Positions 26,935 to 59,500 of a DNA stretch of 64,000 bases are shown here, piece by piece. The position numbers and the translations under genes are program-made. The stretch's first letter is position 1. Every line of letters begins with the position of its first letter. The notes beneath the pieces are model-generated. The model made no database searches. It saw only the letters and a program-made list of their open reading frames with translations, and was not told where the DNA came from. Where the stretch lies: positions 3,695 through 67,694 of IMG/VR virus record IMGVR_UViG_3300005719_000012. One strand, given 5' to 3'. This stretch comes from a virus (taxonomy: Duplodnaviria; Caudoviricetes).

Positions 26935-27783
26935 CTAAGGATTACACCACCCAATCTCTCGGCCGAAGAACACGCACTCAACGCGATCCTCGGTCGCAAG
27001 GCAAGTCTTGCAGACGTCCTCTCCGAACCCGAACTGTTGGTCACAGGCCCGCGGCGTGTAGCACCCCTCACTGCACTTGGGGACCTGCGGATCGACAAAC
27101 TTGCAGAAGTAGGAAGGATCGACGGGATCATCTTTAGGGCCGGTTCCGGAAGTGACAATGGCACTCTTAGGAGCCAGGTTACAGAAGCCTGCAAAAGGGG
27201 CGCAGGAGTGAACCGATCCGCTATCGGCGAGGGAGGCCAGACAGTCCTTGCACTCTTTGACCGTAAGCCCTGTTGCTTCTGCGCACTTGGTCTCGGTGAG
27301 GCAGGAGGCGCTTACACAGTCCGGCACGAGCGCAAAAACATCGCCGCAGGTTAGAGACGCCGGCGGGGACGGTTCATAGTCCTTAGGCGTTGCGTCTTCT
27401 ACCGAGCACGGACCCACGTGCACCAGCTCGATTTGCCTGACTGTCGGGATGGTCCGCGAACCGTCTGCGGTGCATTCCTCTACCTGATAACGGATGCAGT
27501 GCGAAACCGGAGCACTGTCCCTGCAATCGTACGCCGAGCTTGAAGACGTATCACACCGCAACAGCTCGCACCCGAACGCCGAGCCAAGGCAGTCGCCGAT
27601 GTTGTTCCCGTCTCCGGGCTTCATCGCCATGAGGTGCATGTCCGCGGCGGGATAAACCCAAGCTAGCGACCCGGTATGCCACTCTGTGCTGCACGTCGTG
27701 ACACCTGCAAACCCCGGAGCTGCTGCAATCATCGCCACGACCGCCACTACAGCAACCAACACGAACACACTCTTTCTACACAT
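26935..27783 (-). CDS. Secreted Cys-rich protein (24 Cys in mature part)
   Basis: SD aagggga 7 nt before ATG 27783; signal peptide MCRKSVFVLVAVVAVVAMIAAAPGFA|G; internal repeat C..C.T...C....G....CKxCLA occurs twice. Confidence 0.8.
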   Translation of the reverse strand: MCRKSVFVLVAVVAVVAMIAAAPGFAGVTTCSTEWHTGSLAWVYPAADMHLMAMKPGDGNNIGDCLGSAFGCELLRCDTSSSSAYDCRDSAPVSHCIRYQVEECTADGSRTIPTVRQIELVHVGPCSVEDATPKDYEPSPPASLTCGDVFALVPDCVSASCLTETKCAEATGLTVKECKDCLASLADSGSVHSCAPFAGFCNLAPKSAIVTSGTGPKDDPVDPSYFCKFVDPQVPKCSEGCYTPRACDQQFGFGEDVCKTCLATEDRVECVFFGREIGWCNP

Positions 27784-27803
27784 GGACAACTCCCCTTTGA
27801 AAC

Positions 27804-27831
27804 AGGCGGCTCTCGAAATTGAAAGCCGCCT
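27804..27831 (-). terminator. Intergenic hairpin (attenuator or weak terminator)
   Basis: AGGCGGCT/AGCCGCCT 8-bp stem with a 12-nt loop and only a short T tract. Confidence 0.45.
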
Positions 27832-27885
27832 TCACAGCAATAAGACACGATCTTGTCGAGATTGTTTAGTTGAGAGCCCTGCCGC

Positions 27886-28104
27886 TTACCTGGCAGCGCT
27901 CGTGCCTACAGTCCAGGTCTGGCAGGTGACTTCAGCCGTGGGCTCAGGGCCGGTGCATCCGGTGTAAGCCTGGCAAGTCCAAGCTTCGGTGCACATCATG
28001 TTCCCAGAGGTTCCTTCGCCGCGCACCTGAGTCATTTCCGCGTTGTTGAGGCGGATAATCGTTTCCTTTGCTAGCACTAACTTCACCAGCTTCGACCTTT
28101 TCAT
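27886..28104 (-). CDS. RiPP (lanthipeptide-like) precursor peptide 2
   Basis: SD aagggga; leader MKRSKLVKLVLAKETIIRLNNAEMTQVRG(E); core GTSGNMMCTEAWTCQAYTGCTGPEPTAEVTCQTWTVGTSAAR has 4 Cys and is Thr-rich. Confidence 0.75.
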   Translation of the reverse strand: MKRSKLVKLVLAKETIIRLNNAEMTQVRGEGTSGNMMCTEAWTCQAYTGCTGPEPTAEVTCQTWTVGTSAAR

Positions 28105-28218
28105 GGCTATCCCCTTGCGTGCATCATTCCGGCCTTGTTGGACATGTGAGGATCGTGCAACATGCTGTACCTTGGGTGTCCACCGGGACTTGCGTATCCT
28201 TTTATCTTTTATCGTGGA

Positions 28219-28575
28219 CTACCTGTGCACGCCTGCGCAAATCACGCCGTTGGACCGACCCAAGAGAGCGCCGGCAAGGCCGACGGAAGCGAAAAGCCCG
28301 CCAGATGTGCTTTGCCGCCCGAACGCACCATAGTTCTGGTACTCGGGCCCGCAGATTTCGCCCCGGGTGTATTCATGGTCGCCCACCTGCTGGCAGGCAT
28401 AACAGTTGTTCATACAACCGCAAGACCCCGGTTGAAAGGGGCCCCACTGCGCGCAATCGTCCCAGCAGTAATCAAAGCACGAACAAAAACTTTGCCCGCA
28501 TGACGCACTGACAGGAATGGCGCTAAAAACAAGAAAAACCACAAAAACCACGAGTGCGCTTGTAAGCTGTCTCAT
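28219..28575 (-). CDS. Secreted Cys-rich small protein (11 Cys)
   Basis: SD aaggga; signal peptide MRQLTSALVVFVVFLVFSAIPVSA|S; CGQSFCSCFDYCWDDC...CGCMNNCYAC. Confidence 0.75.
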   Translation of the reverse strand: MRQLTSALVVFVVFLVFSAIPVSASCGQSFCSCFDYCWDDCAQWGPFQPGSCGCMNNCYACQQVGDHEYTRGEICGPEYQNYGAFGRQSTSGGLFASVGLAGALLGRSNGVICAGVHR

Positions 28576-28666
28576 TTGTCTGTTCCCTTTCTTTGAAAAA
28601 GTAACGGGCCGAGCCGATACTCGCGCCCCGAGTCGAGAGCGACATCAGCCACACGCTGACGTCCCC

Positions 28667-28888
28667 TCAGTAGATTGGAGGTTGACAAGTCACCTCATAA
28701 CTTGGCTCACAATAGCACGTATAATAACACGTCTGGCACGTGTCAACGTAAACGCAAACAGTGCCATTGCTATTGCCGGCAGGCTCGGAATAATGGCCCG
28801 TATAGCCGCCACGAATCAGAGAATTGGACAGATTCGTGAGAGTCTCTCTAGACAAAGATAACCTGTGAGCCGCTATTTTCTTTTTCAT
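28667..28888 (-). CDS. RiPP (lanthipeptide-like) precursor peptide 1, 73 aa
   Basis: SD aaggaag; leader MKKKIAAHRLSLSRETLTNLSNSLIRGG; core YTGHYSEPAGNSNGTVCVYVDTCQTCYYTCYCEPSYEVTCQPPIY has 6 Cys and 9 Ser/Thr. Confidence 0.8.
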   Translation of the reverse strand: MKKKIAAHRLSLSRETLTNLSNSLIRGGYTGHYSEPAGNSNGTVCVYVDTCQTCYYTCYCEPSYEVTCQPPIY

Positions 28889-28937: not shown

Positions 28938-29495
28938 TTATTGACCAAGCAGCTCATCTCGCAACATTGCCCGTACCTTCTCCATAAGCTCTTTACAGCG
29001 CAGCAATCCCTCACGCTCGACAACCATCCATTGAATCACCCGCGTTGCTGCCCGGTCAATTGCTTCATCATACGCCTTGCTGAGGTCGTTGTCAAGTGCT
29101 ATATCCTCGTACGATCGCATCTCTGGGCTTGGCTCTGGCCCGTCGATGAGATTGCGACACTCGATCATACGAGCAAAGGAAGAGACTTCCGTAGGGAACA
29201 GGGCTATCGCTTCGAGTACGACATTGCCGCTAGAATCTAAAACGTTATACGATTGCAGAACATCATCGGTATGAGAGGAGGATTGCGGCTCTAGCCGCCA
29301 AGTCGTTATTTCCGACACCTTGCACTTCTCGCACGACCGCAAGTCAACAAACGGTCGGCCGCACTCGCTGCATACGTCATCGTCTTCAAGGTACGCGGGA
29401 ACAATCAGCGGCGGATGCCACGCGCCGAAGTCGAAAGTTTGATCGTACATTGCGGCGTTCATGAGTCTGTCCGTGCCAGTCGTCTCTGTGCTCAT
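28938..29495 (-). CDS. Hypothetical protein with CxxC...CxxC zinc ribbon
   Basis: CSECGRPFVDLRSCEKC; ggag SD. Confidence 0.6.
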   Translation of the reverse strand: MSTETTGTDRLMNAAMYDQTFDFGAWHPPLIVPAYLEDDDVCSECGRPFVDLRSCEKCKVSEITTWRLEPQSSSHTDDVLQSYNVLDSSGNVVLEAIALFPTEVSSFARMIECRNLIDGPEPSPEMRSYEDIALDNDLSKAYDEAIDRAATRVIQWMVVEREGLLRCKELMEKVRAMLRDELLGQ

Positions 29496-51634: not shown

Positions 51635-52099
51635 ATGCGCTTCTACTATCTGACCATCTCTACCTACATTGGTATATCTTGCGGCGCGATGCATTACTAC
51701 GGCCGAATAAGATACGACAGCAATGACGGCGACCATAAAGAGGTTGACTTGGAGCACCCGATATCACCGCGAGCGTCCAGGAAGATCAATCGAAGCGAAG
51801 GATGGATTGTATTTCGTCCCGGCGACATGATCCGCAGCTTTGCCTCGGAAAATGAAGTCAGAGACGCAGCGATAAAATGGTTCATTGAGGCCGGCGATAG
51901 TCAAGGGATTTTACTGGAAGGATTATTCGCAAGTGCCGATCCGATGAAGGCATTGGCCGGAGACCCGGCAGCAATAGAAAACATAAATTCTCTTTACGCG
52001 GCGTGGGAAAGTATTCACGGTTGGGGAGGAGTACATAGCGCAGCGCAGACGGTTGCCGATCTGTGGGACAGTCTTATGCGTGAGCTGTCGCTTTCTTAG
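51635..52099 (+). CDS. Hypothetical protein
   Basis: 154 aa; gaggg SD. Confidence 0.55.
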   Translation: MRFYYLTISTYIGISCGAMHYYGRIRYDSNDGDHKEVDLEHPISPRASRKINRSEGWIVFRPGDMIRSFASENEVRDAAIKWFIEAGDSQGILLEGLFASADPMKALAGDPAAIENINSLYAAWESIHGWGGVHSAAQTVADLWDSLMRELSLS

Positions 52100-52109
52100 G
52101 CGAGAGGAA

Positions 52110-52622
52110 ATGTACGCCGTTACGGGACATCGCCCCGAACGTCTCGGCATTTCATATTCCGAGCGCGACCGACGTGTACTCACACGTTTCGCAATTCAAA
52201 CTCTCGGGACGTACTGCGACCTTGACGACACGTTAATAACCGGTATGGCGCTGGGCTGGGATCAAGCATGCGCGGAAGCGGCACGATCGCTCGGCATGCG
52301 GTATATTGCCGCGATACCGTTCGAAGGCCAAGAGTCAACGTGGCCAGAGGAAGCACAGAGACGATACGGACGACTTCTTGCTAGTGCTGACTTGATCGTT
52401 ACGATTAGCACTAGAGCTAACATATCGAGCGCGTTCAAGGCTCGCAACGTCTATATGGTCGATCGCGCGGAAACGATCATCGCGCTCTACGACGGCACGG
52501 CTCGCGGCGGCACATTTCATGCAGTAACGTACGCGAAGACACAAGGGCGGCGAGTCATTAACGTTTGGAAGGACTGGCAGGCGTTTTTCGGAGGTCAACG
52601 ACATACGTCAAATTCCGTTTAA
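52110..52622 (+). CDS. SLOG-family protein (YspA/DUF1273-like)
   Basis: VTGHRP, ITGMALGWDQ, AIPFEGQE..W, RNVYMVD and GGTFHAVTYA. Confidence 0.85.
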   Translation: MYAVTGHRPERLGISYSERDRRVLTRFAIQTLGTYCDLDDTLITGMALGWDQACAEAARSLGMRYIAAIPFEGQESTWPEEAQRRYGRLLASADLIVTISTRANISSAFKARNVYMVDRAETIIALYDGTARGGTFHAVTYAKTQGRRVINVWKDWQAFFGGQRHTSNSV

Positions 52623-52840
52623 TCGGTTTGTCTGTCCGCGCTGCGGTGGGACTGGTAAGTGTAAAGAAGTGGACGGATATAAGATGAAGGCTGCTTCGGA
52701 AAGCAACCAATGTTAGTTTGAGAGAAATGGCCAGCCGGCTTAACATCAGCGCGATGTATCTATCGGATCTGGAGCTAGGTCGAAGAAACTTTTCCGAAGA
52801 ACTTGCACGTAGATTCGTGGCCGAATGCTCCATATCGTGA
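52603..52840 (+). pseudogene. Zn-ribbon plus XRE HTH protein split by a +1 indel near 52687
   Basis: CPRCGGTGKCKEVDGYKM in one frame continues as RLLRKATNVSLREMASRLNISAMYLSDLELGRRN in the next; ATA follows the ggagg SD. Confidence 0.55.
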
Positions 52841-55629
52841 ATCCTCTTGCTACTGCCGTCTTCGGCTTCGGCCGTACACCGAACGACATAATGCTTGTTG
52901 GCGAAGGCCCGGGCGCCGAAGAATACCGCTACGGAAAGCCGTTTATCGGCCCTAGTGGCATAGAACAAGACTGGTATCTCGCAGCGCACGATCTCTCCTC
53001 ACGCTTCTGGTACAAAACGAACGTCTCGAAAACCTTCATCCCCGGCAATCCCGACCCGGACGATGCACTAATCTCCTTTTGGTCGTCCTGGCTTGAGGAC
53101 GAGATCCGCGAGTGCTCCCCTAAACTTATCATCGCGGTCGGCAAAATCGCGGCAACGTGGTTCCTGCACAAACGCCGTGACATGGAGACGATTCACGGAA
53201 TACCGTTTCCTGTGACCGTCGCTGGCGTACGCGCGATCGTAATTCCGATTTTCCACCCTGCGTATGGCCTACGCAACCCGGATATTAAAGGTACGATCGC
53301 TTGGGATTATTCAATCGGCGCGACCGCGGTACGACTCGCACAGCGCACGTCCCGCGAGTCGTTCTACGCGCACTATGCCGCGCAGACTCCCGTTAACGAA
53401 ATTCCGTCGCCGAAATACACAGAACTCTCCGGCCCGGACTTCATCTCCGCGATGCGCCCCTACGAAGATTCTCTCCTCGGCGCGCCTATCGAATTCGGCC
53501 TTGATACCGAAGGCTGGACAGACTACCCGTGGCCGCAGTGGCTGCAAATCTCACCCGAACCCGGCGTATCGTACATTCTCAAGTCGGGCCGCAAAAACAA
53601 CGGATTCGATCTCGCGATTCGCAAGCTGCAATCCTACATCGATCGCGGATCTACCGTCGTCGCGCATCAGGCGGGCTCACCCTCGGGCGCAATGATCGAT
53701 ACGCAGATCTGTCGCATTCTTGGGCTTGAGCTTCGAGACGCTTGCCTCGACGACACGATGTACGCGGCTTACCTCCTGCGCGTATTGTCTCGCGGCCTCA
53801 AGCCTTTATGCTTCCGATTCGCCGGCATGGAAATGGACAATTACGAAGGCATCATCGGCGACATTGGCCGCGCGAAACAAATCGACTACCTGCGGCGCGC
53901 CTTGACGCATAACTGGACTAAGCCTGATTCGTACCCCGAACGCCAGAACGACGGTACGTGGAAGATCAAATCGCCGAAGTCAATGGCCGTGCTTATCGAG
54001 GGCGTTCTCCGCGATATTGACAGCGGCAAGATTCTCAAAGATGGGCCGACTGATCCTGAAAAACGCTGGCGGAAGTTTCCAAAGCGCAGCCGCCGGGAGA
54101 TCTCTGCGGCCATGGGCACGTTCCCGCGCGGTACACTTGACGACGTCGATCCTAAACTCGCAAACGGTTACGCGGGCGCGGACTCAGACGGCGTACTGCG
54201 AATCAAGCCACGCATACTTCATGAGCTAGACGCACTTGGCTTAATCCCTATCTACAATCAAGCGATGAGATTCCTGCCCATCGTTGAAGACATGCAACGC
54301 GAGGGCATGCCGGCGCGACGTTCAAAATTCAACGCGTTGCAATCGTACATCTTGCGCGAGAAGCTAAAAATGCAACGCGAGATAAACGAAATAAACGGTA
54401 AGCCGATTAACGTCAACTCGCCAAAGCAGATGATTCCCGCGTTACGCCGAATGTCCGTTACGCCACGCAAGCGCACAAAATCAGGCGCACCTTCGATCAG
54501 TAAGAAGAGCCTAGAGTACGCGAAGCACTTCTCGCGCTTCGTACTACTGTCATTCCAAATCAAGGAGCACGGCAAAATCGAGAGCACGTACTGCCGCCCT
54601 GCGATCGATATTGCCGATAATAAAGACGTGGATGGTGCGCCCGATAATGACGAATTCATTGTCAATTCGTTTTTCCAGGCCGCAAAGCTAACGTCACGAC
54701 GACTCGCAACCGAAAAGCCCTCGCTGCTGAATCAGCCCAAGCGAACAAAAATCGGTCGCATGGTCCGCGATTGCTACGTATTTCCTGCAAAGCGTGAAGT
54801 CTGTGAATATGACTTCAAGGCGCAAGAGTTACGCGTCGCGGTGTCGATCTCTCGCGACCCGTTCGGCATCCAAATGTTCACGAAGTGCTCGATATGCGGT
54901 GTGGACCTGCCAACAAAATCTCCATGTCGCAAGGACGACAAAGGCGAGCACAGCGACCCGCACAGACAAGCTGCCGCGCGTATCTTCGGTATTGACTACC
55001 GCGACGTAGATAAATACGAGCATCGCTTGCCCGCAAAGACTGCTACATTCGGCGTCATCAACGGATTGTCTGACCTCGGCCTTGTCGATCAATTTCTTAT
55101 GTACATCCCTCCCGGCCCTGACGGTGTTCATCCGTGGGCGAAAGTATCTGACTGTGAGCATCTGATTAAGGAGATCCTAACAAAGGTTTACAGGGGAATC
55201 GGTGAGGAGATCAAAGCCACGGAGCGATATCTACGCGCTCATGGGCTCGTACGTGACGTCTATGGCGACAATCAACCCGGGATGCTGCGCTACCTGCCCA
55301 ATGGTCGCTCAGAACGCCAGCGCGACCGTGCAGAGGCAATCCGCCAAGGGTTTAATCATCGCGTCCAGGGTACCGCAGCGCAAATGTCTCAAGCGTCGAT
55401 GGTATGGTGCGATCTGCATATCCGCAAGATGCAGCGGCGCGGCGTAGATGTGCACTGGCACTTACTTTCGCATGATGCGTTTATGTTGTCTTATCCGCCG
55501 CAGTATCGCGAGCAGGTTGGCGCGATCATTCTAGAAGGTATGACGAAACATCATGGTGTTAAACTCTGCGTCCCCGTCGAGGCTGACGGGGAGTTTGCGC
55601 AGTCTTGGGGGGAGTTGAAAAAAGACTAG
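52825..55629 (+). CDS. polA: Family A DNA polymerase with N-terminal family-4 UDG-like domain and 3'-5' exonuclease
   Basis: UDG: LVGEGPGAEE...PFIGPSG and FHPAY. Exonuclease: LDTEG and DTMYAAYLL. Polymerase: motif A YDFKAQELRV, motif B AKTATFGVING, motif C SHDA. Confidence 0.9.
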   Translation: MLHIVNPLATAVFGFGRTPNDIMLVGEGPGAEEYRYGKPFIGPSGIEQDWYLAAHDLSSRFWYKTNVSKTFIPGNPDPDDALISFWSSWLEDEIRECSPKLIIAVGKIAATWFLHKRRDMETIHGIPFPVTVAGVRAIVIPIFHPAYGLRNPDIKGTIAWDYSIGATAVRLAQRTSRESFYAHYAAQTPVNEIPSPKYTELSGPDFISAMRPYEDSLLGAPIEFGLDTEGWTDYPWPQWLQISPEPGVSYILKSGRKNNGFDLAIRKLQSYIDRGSTVVAHQAGSPSGAMIDTQICRILGLELRDACLDDTMYAAYLLRVLSRGLKPLCFRFAGMEMDNYEGIIGDIGRAKQIDYLRRALTHNWTKPDSYPERQNDGTWKIKSPKSMAVLIEGVLRDIDSGKILKDGPTDPEKRWRKFPKRSRREISAAMGTFPRGTLDDVDPKLANGYAGADSDGVLRIKPRILHELDALGLIPIYNQAMRFLPIVEDMQREGMPARRSKFNALQSYILREKLKMQREINEINGKPINVNSPKQMIPALRRMSVTPRKRTKSGAPSISKKSLEYAKHFSRFVLLSFQIKEHGKIESTYCRPAIDIADNKDVDGAPDNDEFIVNSFFQAAKLTSRRLATEKPSLLNQPKRTKIGRMVRDCYVFPAKREVCEYDFKAQELRVAVSISRDPFGIQMFTKCSICGVDLPTKSPCRKDDKGEHSDPHRQAAARIFGIDYRDVDKYEHRLPAKTATFGVINGLSDLGLVDQFLMYIPPGPDGVHPWAKVSDCEHLIKEILTKVYRGIGEEIKATERYLRAHGLVRDVYGDNQPGMLRYLPNGRSERQRDRAEAIRQGFNHRVQGTAAQMSQASMVWCDLHIRKMQRRGVDVHWHLLSHDAFMLSYPPQYREQVGAIILEGMTKHHGVKLCVPVEADGEFAQSWGELKKD

Positions 55630-58622: not shown

Positions 58623-58916
58623 TCAATCTTCCCCTAGTGAGTCATTCAACCGCCGGGCATAATTGCTTGTGTCGCTCTTGCCGTTTCGTGCGTCACATTC
58701 CCTCTGCGACTGTTCGCGGTCTTCAAACTCTAGTATAAAACCTTCCTCAGTTTTGGCGTACTCGCGTCGTATGCGCTTTCCCTCCGGATGTCTGAATATC
58801 CGCCAGAACACTCGTCCTGTTGGGCCGTCCGCGCATTGTGTTAGCTGCCAAAGCATATATATAATCTTCTCTCTTATGCTCGTACCCACATCACGACTCA
58901 ATCCTTGTGAGCCCAA
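58623..58916 (-). CDS. Hypothetical protein
   Basis: 97 aa in operon. Confidence 0.45.
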   Translation of the reverse strand: MGSQGLSRDVGTSIREKIIYMLWQLTQCADGPTGRVFWRIFRHPEGKRIRREYAKTEEGFILEFEDREQSQRECDARNGKSDTSNYARRLNDSLGED

Positions 58917-59500
58917 GACTGAGGTAAGCCAGGAACATTCTCAATTCGCCACCTTTTGGCAATTTTTCCTCCGATAACACGAATCATATCGCTCAGTTCG
59001 TCGTCGCCGTCGTCAGAAGCCAGTAAGGCGGCGGTGACGATGCCCGATAAAACCCTATCCTGCGCATGATGCAAAAGATCGCGCTTCGAGCGATTGCGGC
59101 CTCGCGCAACGTGCGCTCCTGCGCGAGCGACAAAATTGCGCTCCGGAACTACTCGAAACTCTCCTGTTTCAAGGTTGACCTCGCATGTTAACTTCTCCGT
59201 TTCGGTCGGTCGGCCAGCAAGTCTTGCGTCTACGTCCGCGGCCTTACAGCGATGGACGCCTGTATGTCCTTTATCTCGCGTGCACACATTATGGCCAAAA
59301 CCCGGAACTTGCTCACGACACTCACCAATAGAGCTGATGAGGGCAATATGTCGCTTTGCCGCACATCGTTCCGAATCGCCCGCCATAAATCCGCGCCACC
59401 ACTCCTTGCCGGCCTTGGTGCGCCCGTCGTAGGGGCACGTCAAGCCGTAGGGGCTGGCGAGTCCGGCGGTGTAGCCTTCGTTATACTGTTGATCACTCAT
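58898..59500 (-). CDS. Hypothetical protein (RMF-like CPY...WWRG motif, C..H..HxC)
   Basis: GYTAG.....CPY.......WWRGF; CTRDKGHTGVHRC; SD aggagg. Confidence 0.55.
   Translation of the reverse strand: MSDQQYNEGYTAGLASPYGLTCPYDGRTKAGKEWWRGFMAGDSERCAAKRHIALISSIGECREQVPGFGHNVCTRDKGHTGVHRCKAADVDARLAGRPTETEKLTCEVNLETGEFRVVPERNFVARAGAHVARGRNRSKRDLLHHAQDRVLSGIVTAALLASDDGDDELSDMIRVIGGKIAKRWRIENVPGLPQSWAHKD

Follow-up and report, generated by a model that had tools for sequence, protein, structure and literature searches.

Lanthipeptide precursors are usually studied within their own gene clusters. Among class I precursors with a leader of the L1a type (NF038153 / PF28317), the studied members are pinensin, Ped15.1/2, thalassomonasin and the viridisin precursors VdsA1/A2. 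Class I LanA leaders that carry the motif LxLxKx5L, many but not all of which end in Gly-Gly, often cluster with a C39 protease (Walker et al., PMC7268733), and the study of viridisin from Thalassomonas established that LanB and LanC enzymes act on L1a-type peptides, with VdsCB modifying them (PMC9680876). Recognition by C39 peptidases follows a rule of hydrophobic residues at positions -4, -7 and -12 of the leader (PMC6363468), and the canonical double-glycine sites are GG, GA and GS (PMC10885120). Not all precursors lie beside their enzymes, as in the scattered multi-copy sets with a prochlorosin-like logic, among them the L1a peptides of Acidobacteriota, in which precursors of one leader type are encoded far from LanC. 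Such sets show that a foreign, phage-borne precursor could be accepted, although they differ from the phage peptides described below in being chromosomal genes of the producer, and the prochlorosins are class II peptides (ProcM).

Surveys of phage-borne biosynthetic clusters have reported chiefly bacteriocins on temperate phages (10.1101/2020.10.01.322628), and links between RiPPs and phages have also been surveyed (PMC11118758). Phages that encode lanthipeptide precursors alone were not described in the literature passages searched. In this study, we analyzed two small leftward genes, here called precursors 1 and 2, in a window of 64,000 nucleotides that comprises bases 3695-67694 of the 67,694-bp IMG/VR record IMGVR_UViG_3300005719_000012, a phage genome rated 100% complete by CheckV. 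What is new here is the acidic -1 variant together with a paralogue pair in one phage.

Results

The Precursor 2 Gene and Its Leader

An ORF listing and a reading of the sequence agreed with the minus-strand frame and translation of precursor 2 given in the initial annotation, with a start ATG at 28104-28102 and a stop TAA at 27888-27886 (Table 1). Under the codon usage of the phage, this frame ranked best of six (LLR +12.8), the highest codon score among the small genes of the cassette, and the hairpin downstream of it was recovered by RNA folding (z -2.35) and by a separate terminator-like call at the same place. A word-index search for close homologues returned the peptide itself alone, and no sequence variants were present in the databases searched. 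Relatives on IMG/VR viral contigs were not found with A1 patterns, with the commonest leader 9-mer, LNKETIANL, or with KLVL[NA]KET, in scans where records of near kin were possibly masked. Twenty matches to the back-translated EP[ST]xEVTCQ in 596 Gb of species genomes were rejected, all being chance matches in unrelated frames.

The precursor 2 leader matched the NCBIfam model NF038153 (lant_leader_L1a) with 29.3 bits, above the cut-off of 22 (30.2 bits in a six-frame search), with residues 1-29 aligned on profile positions 1-31 of 32. This model was the sole NCBIfam match of the phage peptides. The motif LxLxKx5L is present as L9-V-L11-A-K13-ETIIR-L19, and when the last Leu of the motif was set as -12, the positions of the double-glycine consensus proved to be kept as L-12 (L19), E-8 (E23), M-7 (M24), V-4 (V27) and G-2 (G29), which places hydrophobic residues at -4, -7 and -12 with E30 counted as -1. 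The codons around the site are cgc ggc gaa gga (R28 G29 E30 G31), and with the GAA codon confirmed in the sequence, the earlier description of a leader that fits the double-glycine consensus apart from Glu at -1 holds. The Gly-Gly or Gly-Ala leader end, which is a typical rather than strictly defining trait, is absent (G29-E30).

Residues were tabulated in the same register for 114 non-phage members of the family, 59 from protein databases and 55 from 17 sampled Acidobacteriota genomes. In this set, which was selected with profiles containing GG plus a sample of one phylum, positions -2/-1 were GG in 87 relatives (including the row L038 from genome G159, on which none of the conclusions rests), GA in 15, AG in 4, SG in one and GK in one, the other six rows being a junk row and evident register shifts by one or two residues. 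GG or GA is therefore found in 102 of the 114 relatives and an acidic -1 residue in none, so the RG-E site was rightly called non-canonical. The consensus of the relatives at -4 (V/I/L), -7 (M/L) and -8 (E/Q/D) is matched by V27, M24 and E23, respectively, and the leader of precursor 2 is near-perfect against that consensus save for Glu30. A register in which cleavage follows G31 was discarded because it would set Glu at -2 and Arg at -4, contrary to the consensus of the relatives. Gly-Ala leader ends were found in 13 of the 55 members from the Acidobacteriota sample versus 2 of the 59 from the database sample.

The positions tabulated are the very ones that C39 peptidase domains read. In this respect precursor 2 resembles the substrates of the C39 domains of PCAT/AMS proteins, such as ComC/ComA, LahA/LahT and lacticin 481, since L(-12), E(-8), M(-7), V(-4) and G(-2) fit the ComA/LahT rules, and it differs from C39-cut double-glycine leaders in having Glu at -1 and in belonging to a phage without a PCAT. 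Because the recognition residues are kept and Glu occupies -1, a C39 enzyme would be expected to bind precursor 2 and to cut it poorly. Glu30 would have arisen either by a transition from GGA to GAA in a leader that once ended in RGGG (ends in GGG are found among the relatives) or by an in-frame deletion; MAFFT placed a 9-residue gap directly after the RG of precursor 2 relative to precursor 1, which preserves the common GG-YT..EP start of the cores.

Table 1. Features of the precursor cassette, with positions in the window.
Feature	Position	Strand	Basis and remarks
282-aa Cys-rich secreted orphan protein	26935..27783	-	Last gene of the cassette; ORF list, codon LLR +22.9
Terminator-like hairpin, 11 bp, G+C-rich, then UGUUUC	27799..27832	-	3' of precursor 2; RNA fold
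Precursor 2 gene (protein P0001), 72 aa + stop	27886..28104	-	ORF listing
Precursor 2 core, residues 31-72	27889..28014	-	Translation, composition count
EPTAEVTCQ motif, precursor 2 residues 54-62	27919..27945	-	Alignments with EPSYEVTCQ of precursor 1
Precursor 2 GAA codon (Glu30)	28015..28017	-	Sequence read; Gly/Ala there in relatives
Precursor 2 leader, residues 1-30	28015..28104	-	HMM alignment and register tabulation against 114 relatives
Shine-Dalgarno AAGGGGA of precursor 2	28110..28116	-	5 nt 5' of ATG; sequence read
118-aa Cys-rich ORF with N-terminal signal peptide	28219..28575	-	Between the precursors; ORF list; reading uncertain
Strongly structured RNA segment, two hairpins with a U-run after the second	28576..28669	-	Directly 3' of precursor 1; RNA fold
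Precursor 1 gene (protein P0002), 73 aa	28667..28888	-	Leader end RGG; NF038153 match below cut-off, alignment, register check
Sigma-70-like promoter TTGACA-17-TATGAT (11/12)	29067..29095	-	5' of precursor 1; consensus match, given no functional weight

A Paralogue Pair With a Shared C-Terminal Motif

Precursor 1 has the leader motif LxLxRx5L and matched NF038153 with 19.8 (E 6.7e-4) to 20.4 bits, under the cut-off of 22, in an alignment that stops at profile position 23. It retains GG, and a three-residue deletion, overlooked in the initial annotation, removes the helix positions -8/-7 so that it has no equivalents of E(-8)/L(-7). Each paralogue thus departs from the family in a different half of the leader, the helix being shortened in precursor 1 and -1 being Glu in precursor 2.

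The proposed status of precursor 2 as a diverged paralogue of precursor 1 was borne out by BLASTP (E 4e-7, 35% identity), by their cores being reciprocal best matches among all relatives collected and by the match of both peptides to the same leader HMM; the BLASTP result and the shared HMM identify their likeness as homology rather than chance. Both cores do contain TCQ twice, as had been claimed, and share EP(S/T)xEVTCQ, but they do not end at it: in precursor 1 (DTCQ, VTCQ) EPSYEVTCQ is followed by the four residues PPIY, and in precursor 2 (WTCQ, VTCQ) EPTAEVTCQ is followed by the ten residues TWTVGTSAAR. By composition count, the 42-residue core of precursor 2 has 4 Cys and 12 Ser/Thr.

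Relatives in Bacterial Lanthipeptide Clusters

When 1.84 billion representative proteins were searched with a profile, 45 matches were obtained, nearly all of which are 50-120 aa long (most 50-90) and have the same leader and Cys/Thr-rich cores. Across the relatives, Thr was the residue that most often preceded Cys, and its being so common there is as expected for dehydration substrates. TCQ was present in the cores of 11 of 115 relatives versus 2.9 +/- 1.7 after shuffling, in a set that was partly chosen with a TCQ-containing profile.

The C-terminal motif shared by the two phage precursors recurs, in line with the initial annotation, in bacterial relatives. One of these, P0017, ends CEPSSIVTCQQN and is encoded between an ABC ATPase gene and a LanC(-like) gene on a 1.7-kb G+C-rich contig (Logan SRR33270631). 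Its core end, TCQTCEPSSIVTCQQN, compares with TCQTCYYTCYCEPSYEVTCQ in precursor 1 and GPEPTAEVTCQ in precursor 2, and it has the same leader type, whereas its canonical AGG site and bacterial cluster context set it apart from precursor 2. The last residues of P0017 are CEPSSIVTCQ, and C-termini of the form (S/T)EATCQP were found in P0023, P0046, P0047 and P0048, the last of which (NCBI: Tenuifilaceae MAG) has a Ser-Gly cleavage site. Wherever a relative shares core features and its context is readable, it adjoins LanC/LanB. Since the core-sharing relatives lie in lanthipeptide clusters, the C-terminal motif is a trait of the wider subfamily and not a peculiarity of the phage.

The closest of all leaders to that of precursor 2 is the one of P0023, whose site (...SMFEVKGKGVF), read in the register used for precursor 2, places Lys at -1 between Gly at -2 and Gly at +1. 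This Gly-Lys-Gly peptide, the one close analogue of the Gly-Glu-Gly site, is paired with a GG-bearing paralogue, P0046, beside LanC and a split LanB, and up to 15 contigs encode the pair along with these enzymes and an S41 peptidase. The whole gene set is seen in the cluster L004:7653-14529 (ENA ERZ27252280 k141_204889), and no PCAT transporter was found on the 15.8-kb contig of P0023/P0046. Removal of the leader or tail in that subfamily may be the task of the S41 enzyme. Like the phage pair, P0023 and P0046 are paralogues with a common C-terminal motif and one deviant site, and their genes are adjacent to each other; unlike it, they are bacterial and have a full enzyme set, and their cores are only weakly similar to the phage peptides. 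A charged -1 residue is thus rare yet found in an ordinary biosynthetic context, and because P0023 is a normal member of a LanC/split-LanB cluster, such a residue need not mean a dead-end peptide. The combination of a canonical and a deviant site within a precursor pair may be recurrent.

Matches to L1a peptides were identified in 17 of 301 sampled Acidobacteriota genomes, with up to 19 copies spread over many contigs. The five L1a-richest of these genomes all have LanC genes (2-8 matches each), few of which adjoin a precursor. Three genomes (G183, G239 and G273; loci L042-L081) have sixteen to nineteen scattered L1a-leader genes each and 2-8 LanC genes. With so many scattered copies and so few LanC genes, modification of distant precursors is normal for L1a peptides.

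The Cassette and the Phage Genome

The precursors lie in a leftward block that is located directly after the rightward tail-fibre genes and comprises, in order of transcription, several small unknown ORFs, a 185-aa ORF, precursor 1, the 118-aa ORF, precursor 2 and the 282-aa protein. Strong RNA structure commonly follows lanA genes, and the 94 nt 3' of precursor 1 fold with -44.1 kcal/mol (z -4.58), a stability equaled by none of 200 shuffles. These hairpins (28576-28669) may be an attenuator or a mRNA-stabilizing element like those after lanA genes. Besides its signal peptide, the 118-aa ORF has a hydrophobic stretch at the C-terminus and is preceded by a Shine-Dalgarno sequence; the public gene call picks an opposite-strand 113-aa ORF at 28162-28503 (+) over it, and the codon score there is roughly neutral on both strands. 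The 282-aa protein has about 24 Cys, and its gene converges on a tail-fibre gene. No relatives of these two Cys-rich neighbors were found in Pfam, NCBIfam, PHROG or Atlas or by sequence, and no flanking repeats were found that would mark the cassette as a mobile insertion.

The remainder of the record includes tailed-phage genes for a portal, a major-head-like protein and minor tail proteins, as well as a 1744-aa ORF of tape-measure size, and replication and lysis genes for a helicase, a topoisomerase-like PHROG match and a GH108/PG_binding_3 endolysin of a type found in phages of Gram-negative hosts. A 934-aa ORF (52825-55629, plus strand) encodes a family A DNA polymerase with an N-terminal domain of the uracil-DNA-glycosylase superfamily, and 5' of it is a gene for a YpsA/SLOG (DprA-like) protein (52053-52622, plus strand). 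The N-terminus of a 200-aa protein (58898-59500, minus strand) resembles ribosome modulation factor (PF04957) at 27.0 bits, under the cut-off of 27.9. There are no tRNA genes in the window.

Neither LanB (PF04738) nor LanC (PF05147) had a match in the complete 67.7-kb record, the former result being the weaker as the PF04738 control was silent in all control genomes; LanB length is reached by no phage ORF except the 1744-aa one. There was likewise no match to a C39 peptidase (PF03412) in the record, with the control positive in 7 of 14 genomes, no RiPP enzyme among the other phage ORFs scanned, and no tyrosine integrase in the complete record. The nearest complete relative, IMGVR_UViG_3300026078_000003, with 60% identity in a tail protein, is without any L1a peptide, and the cassette is accessory on that evidence.

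No relatives of the portal were found in genome contigs. The portal has 28-32% identity to those of cultured phages (Halorubrum, Brevundimonas and enterobacterial phages), and homologues were identified in 2 of 401 sampled Acidobacteriota genomes (38-39% identity), in 3 of 351 Proteobacteria (27-29% identity) and in none of 351 Bacteroidota. The order of the two portal-bearing Acidobacteriota had no L1a peptides in 26 genomes, and the L1a-rich Acidobacteriota order had one portal match, at 33% identity. Together, these sequence matches suggest a weak tilt of the host toward the Acidobacteriota. The Shine-Dalgarno sites and sigma-70-like promoter match in the cassette argue against a Bacteroidota host. 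One Acidobacteriota genome has three portal homologues with 39% identity (G046:C2:494903-496138, 803520-804758 and 3780964-3782202), each inside an open frame of ~780 aa, which may belong to a repeated prophage-like or GTA-like element.

Discussion

Precursor 2 is a real gene with a leader of the L1a family and a paralogue of precursor 1, in a phage without the maturation enzymes, and its -1 residue is rare. It resembles the L1a class I precursors in its leader HMM match, LxLxKx5L, hydrophobic residues at -4, -7 and -12 and Gly at -2, as well as in its Cys/Thr-rich core with frequent Thr-Cys and its length of about 70 aa, and it differs from them in having Glu at -1 instead of Gly/Ala, in being phage-encoded and in the genome around it being without LanB, LanC and a transporter. 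Judging from these sequence features, we consider it probable that both peptides are L1a class I lanthipeptide-type precursors that are carried as phage accessory cargo and matured by host enzymes. They would be orphan accessory genes dependent on host enzymes, because the phage has no LanB, LanC or C39 and its nearest relative has no such cassette, and we infer that both the modification of the phage peptides and the formation of their rings are host-dependent.

During infection, phage transcripts would lead to production of the precursor peptides, whose LxLxKx5L leader would dock them onto the host LanB/LanC. Those enzymes would dehydrate Ser/Thr and close thioether rings onto Cys, with a C-terminal ring that spans (S/T)xEVTC as a likely example. 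Glu at -1 would not be expected to fit the narrow S1 pocket of C39 peptidases, and some other host protease may cut off the leader of precursor 2, at a low rate or at a different bond, or the leader may be retained. Probably, a double-glycine peptidase processes precursor 2 inefficiently, or another protease takes over the task. Several points count against the peptides being substrates of this kind. The L1a leader type may serve other maturases too, and precursor 1 is below the model cut-off and is without the -8/-7 helix positions. In addition, the phage looks virulent, as no integrase was found, and a secreted product would for that reason have little time to benefit anyone.

Possibly, though we think it unlikely, precursor 2 is a duplicate that is drifting and being lost, with a neutral or mildly harmful change of the site by GGA to GAA or by in-frame deletion. 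The intact ORF, strong Shine-Dalgarno sequence, own downstream hairpin and top codon score among the small genes of the cassette do not fit with a decaying copy, nor does the retention of all leader recognition residues and of four Cys, whereas the uniqueness of Glu at -1 against the 114 relatives and the 9-residue gap right after RG would fit, and constraint is not visible as the databases are without variants. Dead genes are, however, quickly shed from phage genomes.

It is improbable, in our estimation, that precursor 2 is a decoy or inhibitor, as the initial annotation suggested, whose uncleavable Gly-Glu leader binds the host lanthipeptide enzymes or PCAT and jams the maturation or export of host lanthipeptides such as defensive ones. 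Such a role presupposes a C39 peptidase as the processing enzyme, and the core has kept a Cys/Thr pattern and C-terminal motif that a pure leader decoy would not need. In addition, the analogous peptide with Gly-Lys-Gly belongs as an ordinary component to a bacterial cluster, on a contig that encodes an S41 peptidase but no PCAT. Consistent with a decoy are a leader near consensus at all recognition positions but -1, the narrowness of the C39 pocket at P1, the location of the cassette in a leftward block of small unknown genes adjoining the divergent early region, and reports of anti-phage lanthipeptides in the literature (10.1101/2024.06.26.600839; PMC12360287). A version in which precursor 2, with its intact recognition helix, mimics a precursor so as to lock the host peptidase/exporter or LanB/LanC and shut down a possibly anti-phage lanthipeptide pathway is more doubtful still; if true, precursor mimicry would represent a new type of phage counter-defence, one based on a RiPP leader.

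A similarly improbable explanation is that the peptides are not lanthipeptides and are instead secreted Cys-rich peptides that stay unmodified or form disulfide bonds, or that another class of maturase acts on, with a double-glycine-type leader. No lanthipeptide enzyme is encoded nearby and the neighboring genes are for Cys-rich Sec-secreted proteins, as this explanation would have it, but the only NCBIfam match is a lanthipeptide leader model, the core-sharing relatives with readable context all adjoin LanC/LanB, and Thr is the most frequent residue before Cys across the relatives. Cys-rich precursors beside class I lanthipeptide enzymes are reported to have been misclassified as rSAM-modified (PMC11118758), and class I and rSAM precursors therefore look alike by sequence. 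Lastly, a sequencing or assembly error with GGA as the true codon would need just a one-base difference and is very improbable, because the identical 72-aa protein with Glu30 recurs on four contigs of ~67.7 kb, including the Logan assembly of SRR5511879, which come from at least two assembly pipelines.

The practical value of the phage peptides is modest; for RiPP engineering, they offer two new cores as well as a variant leader that can be tested. The Gly-Glu site represents a natural experiment on the role of the -1 residue, with a built-in control in precursor 1, which has GG and a shortened helix. The bacterial pair with Gly-Lys-Gly and Gly-Gly sites hints that mixed sites in precursor pairs may be a recurring design, and suggests that proteases other than C39 enzymes serve part of the L1a precursors. 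A precursor-only, virulent-looking phage implies that phage substrates can be plugged into a peptide-maturation line of the host, where they could yield new products or block those of the host.
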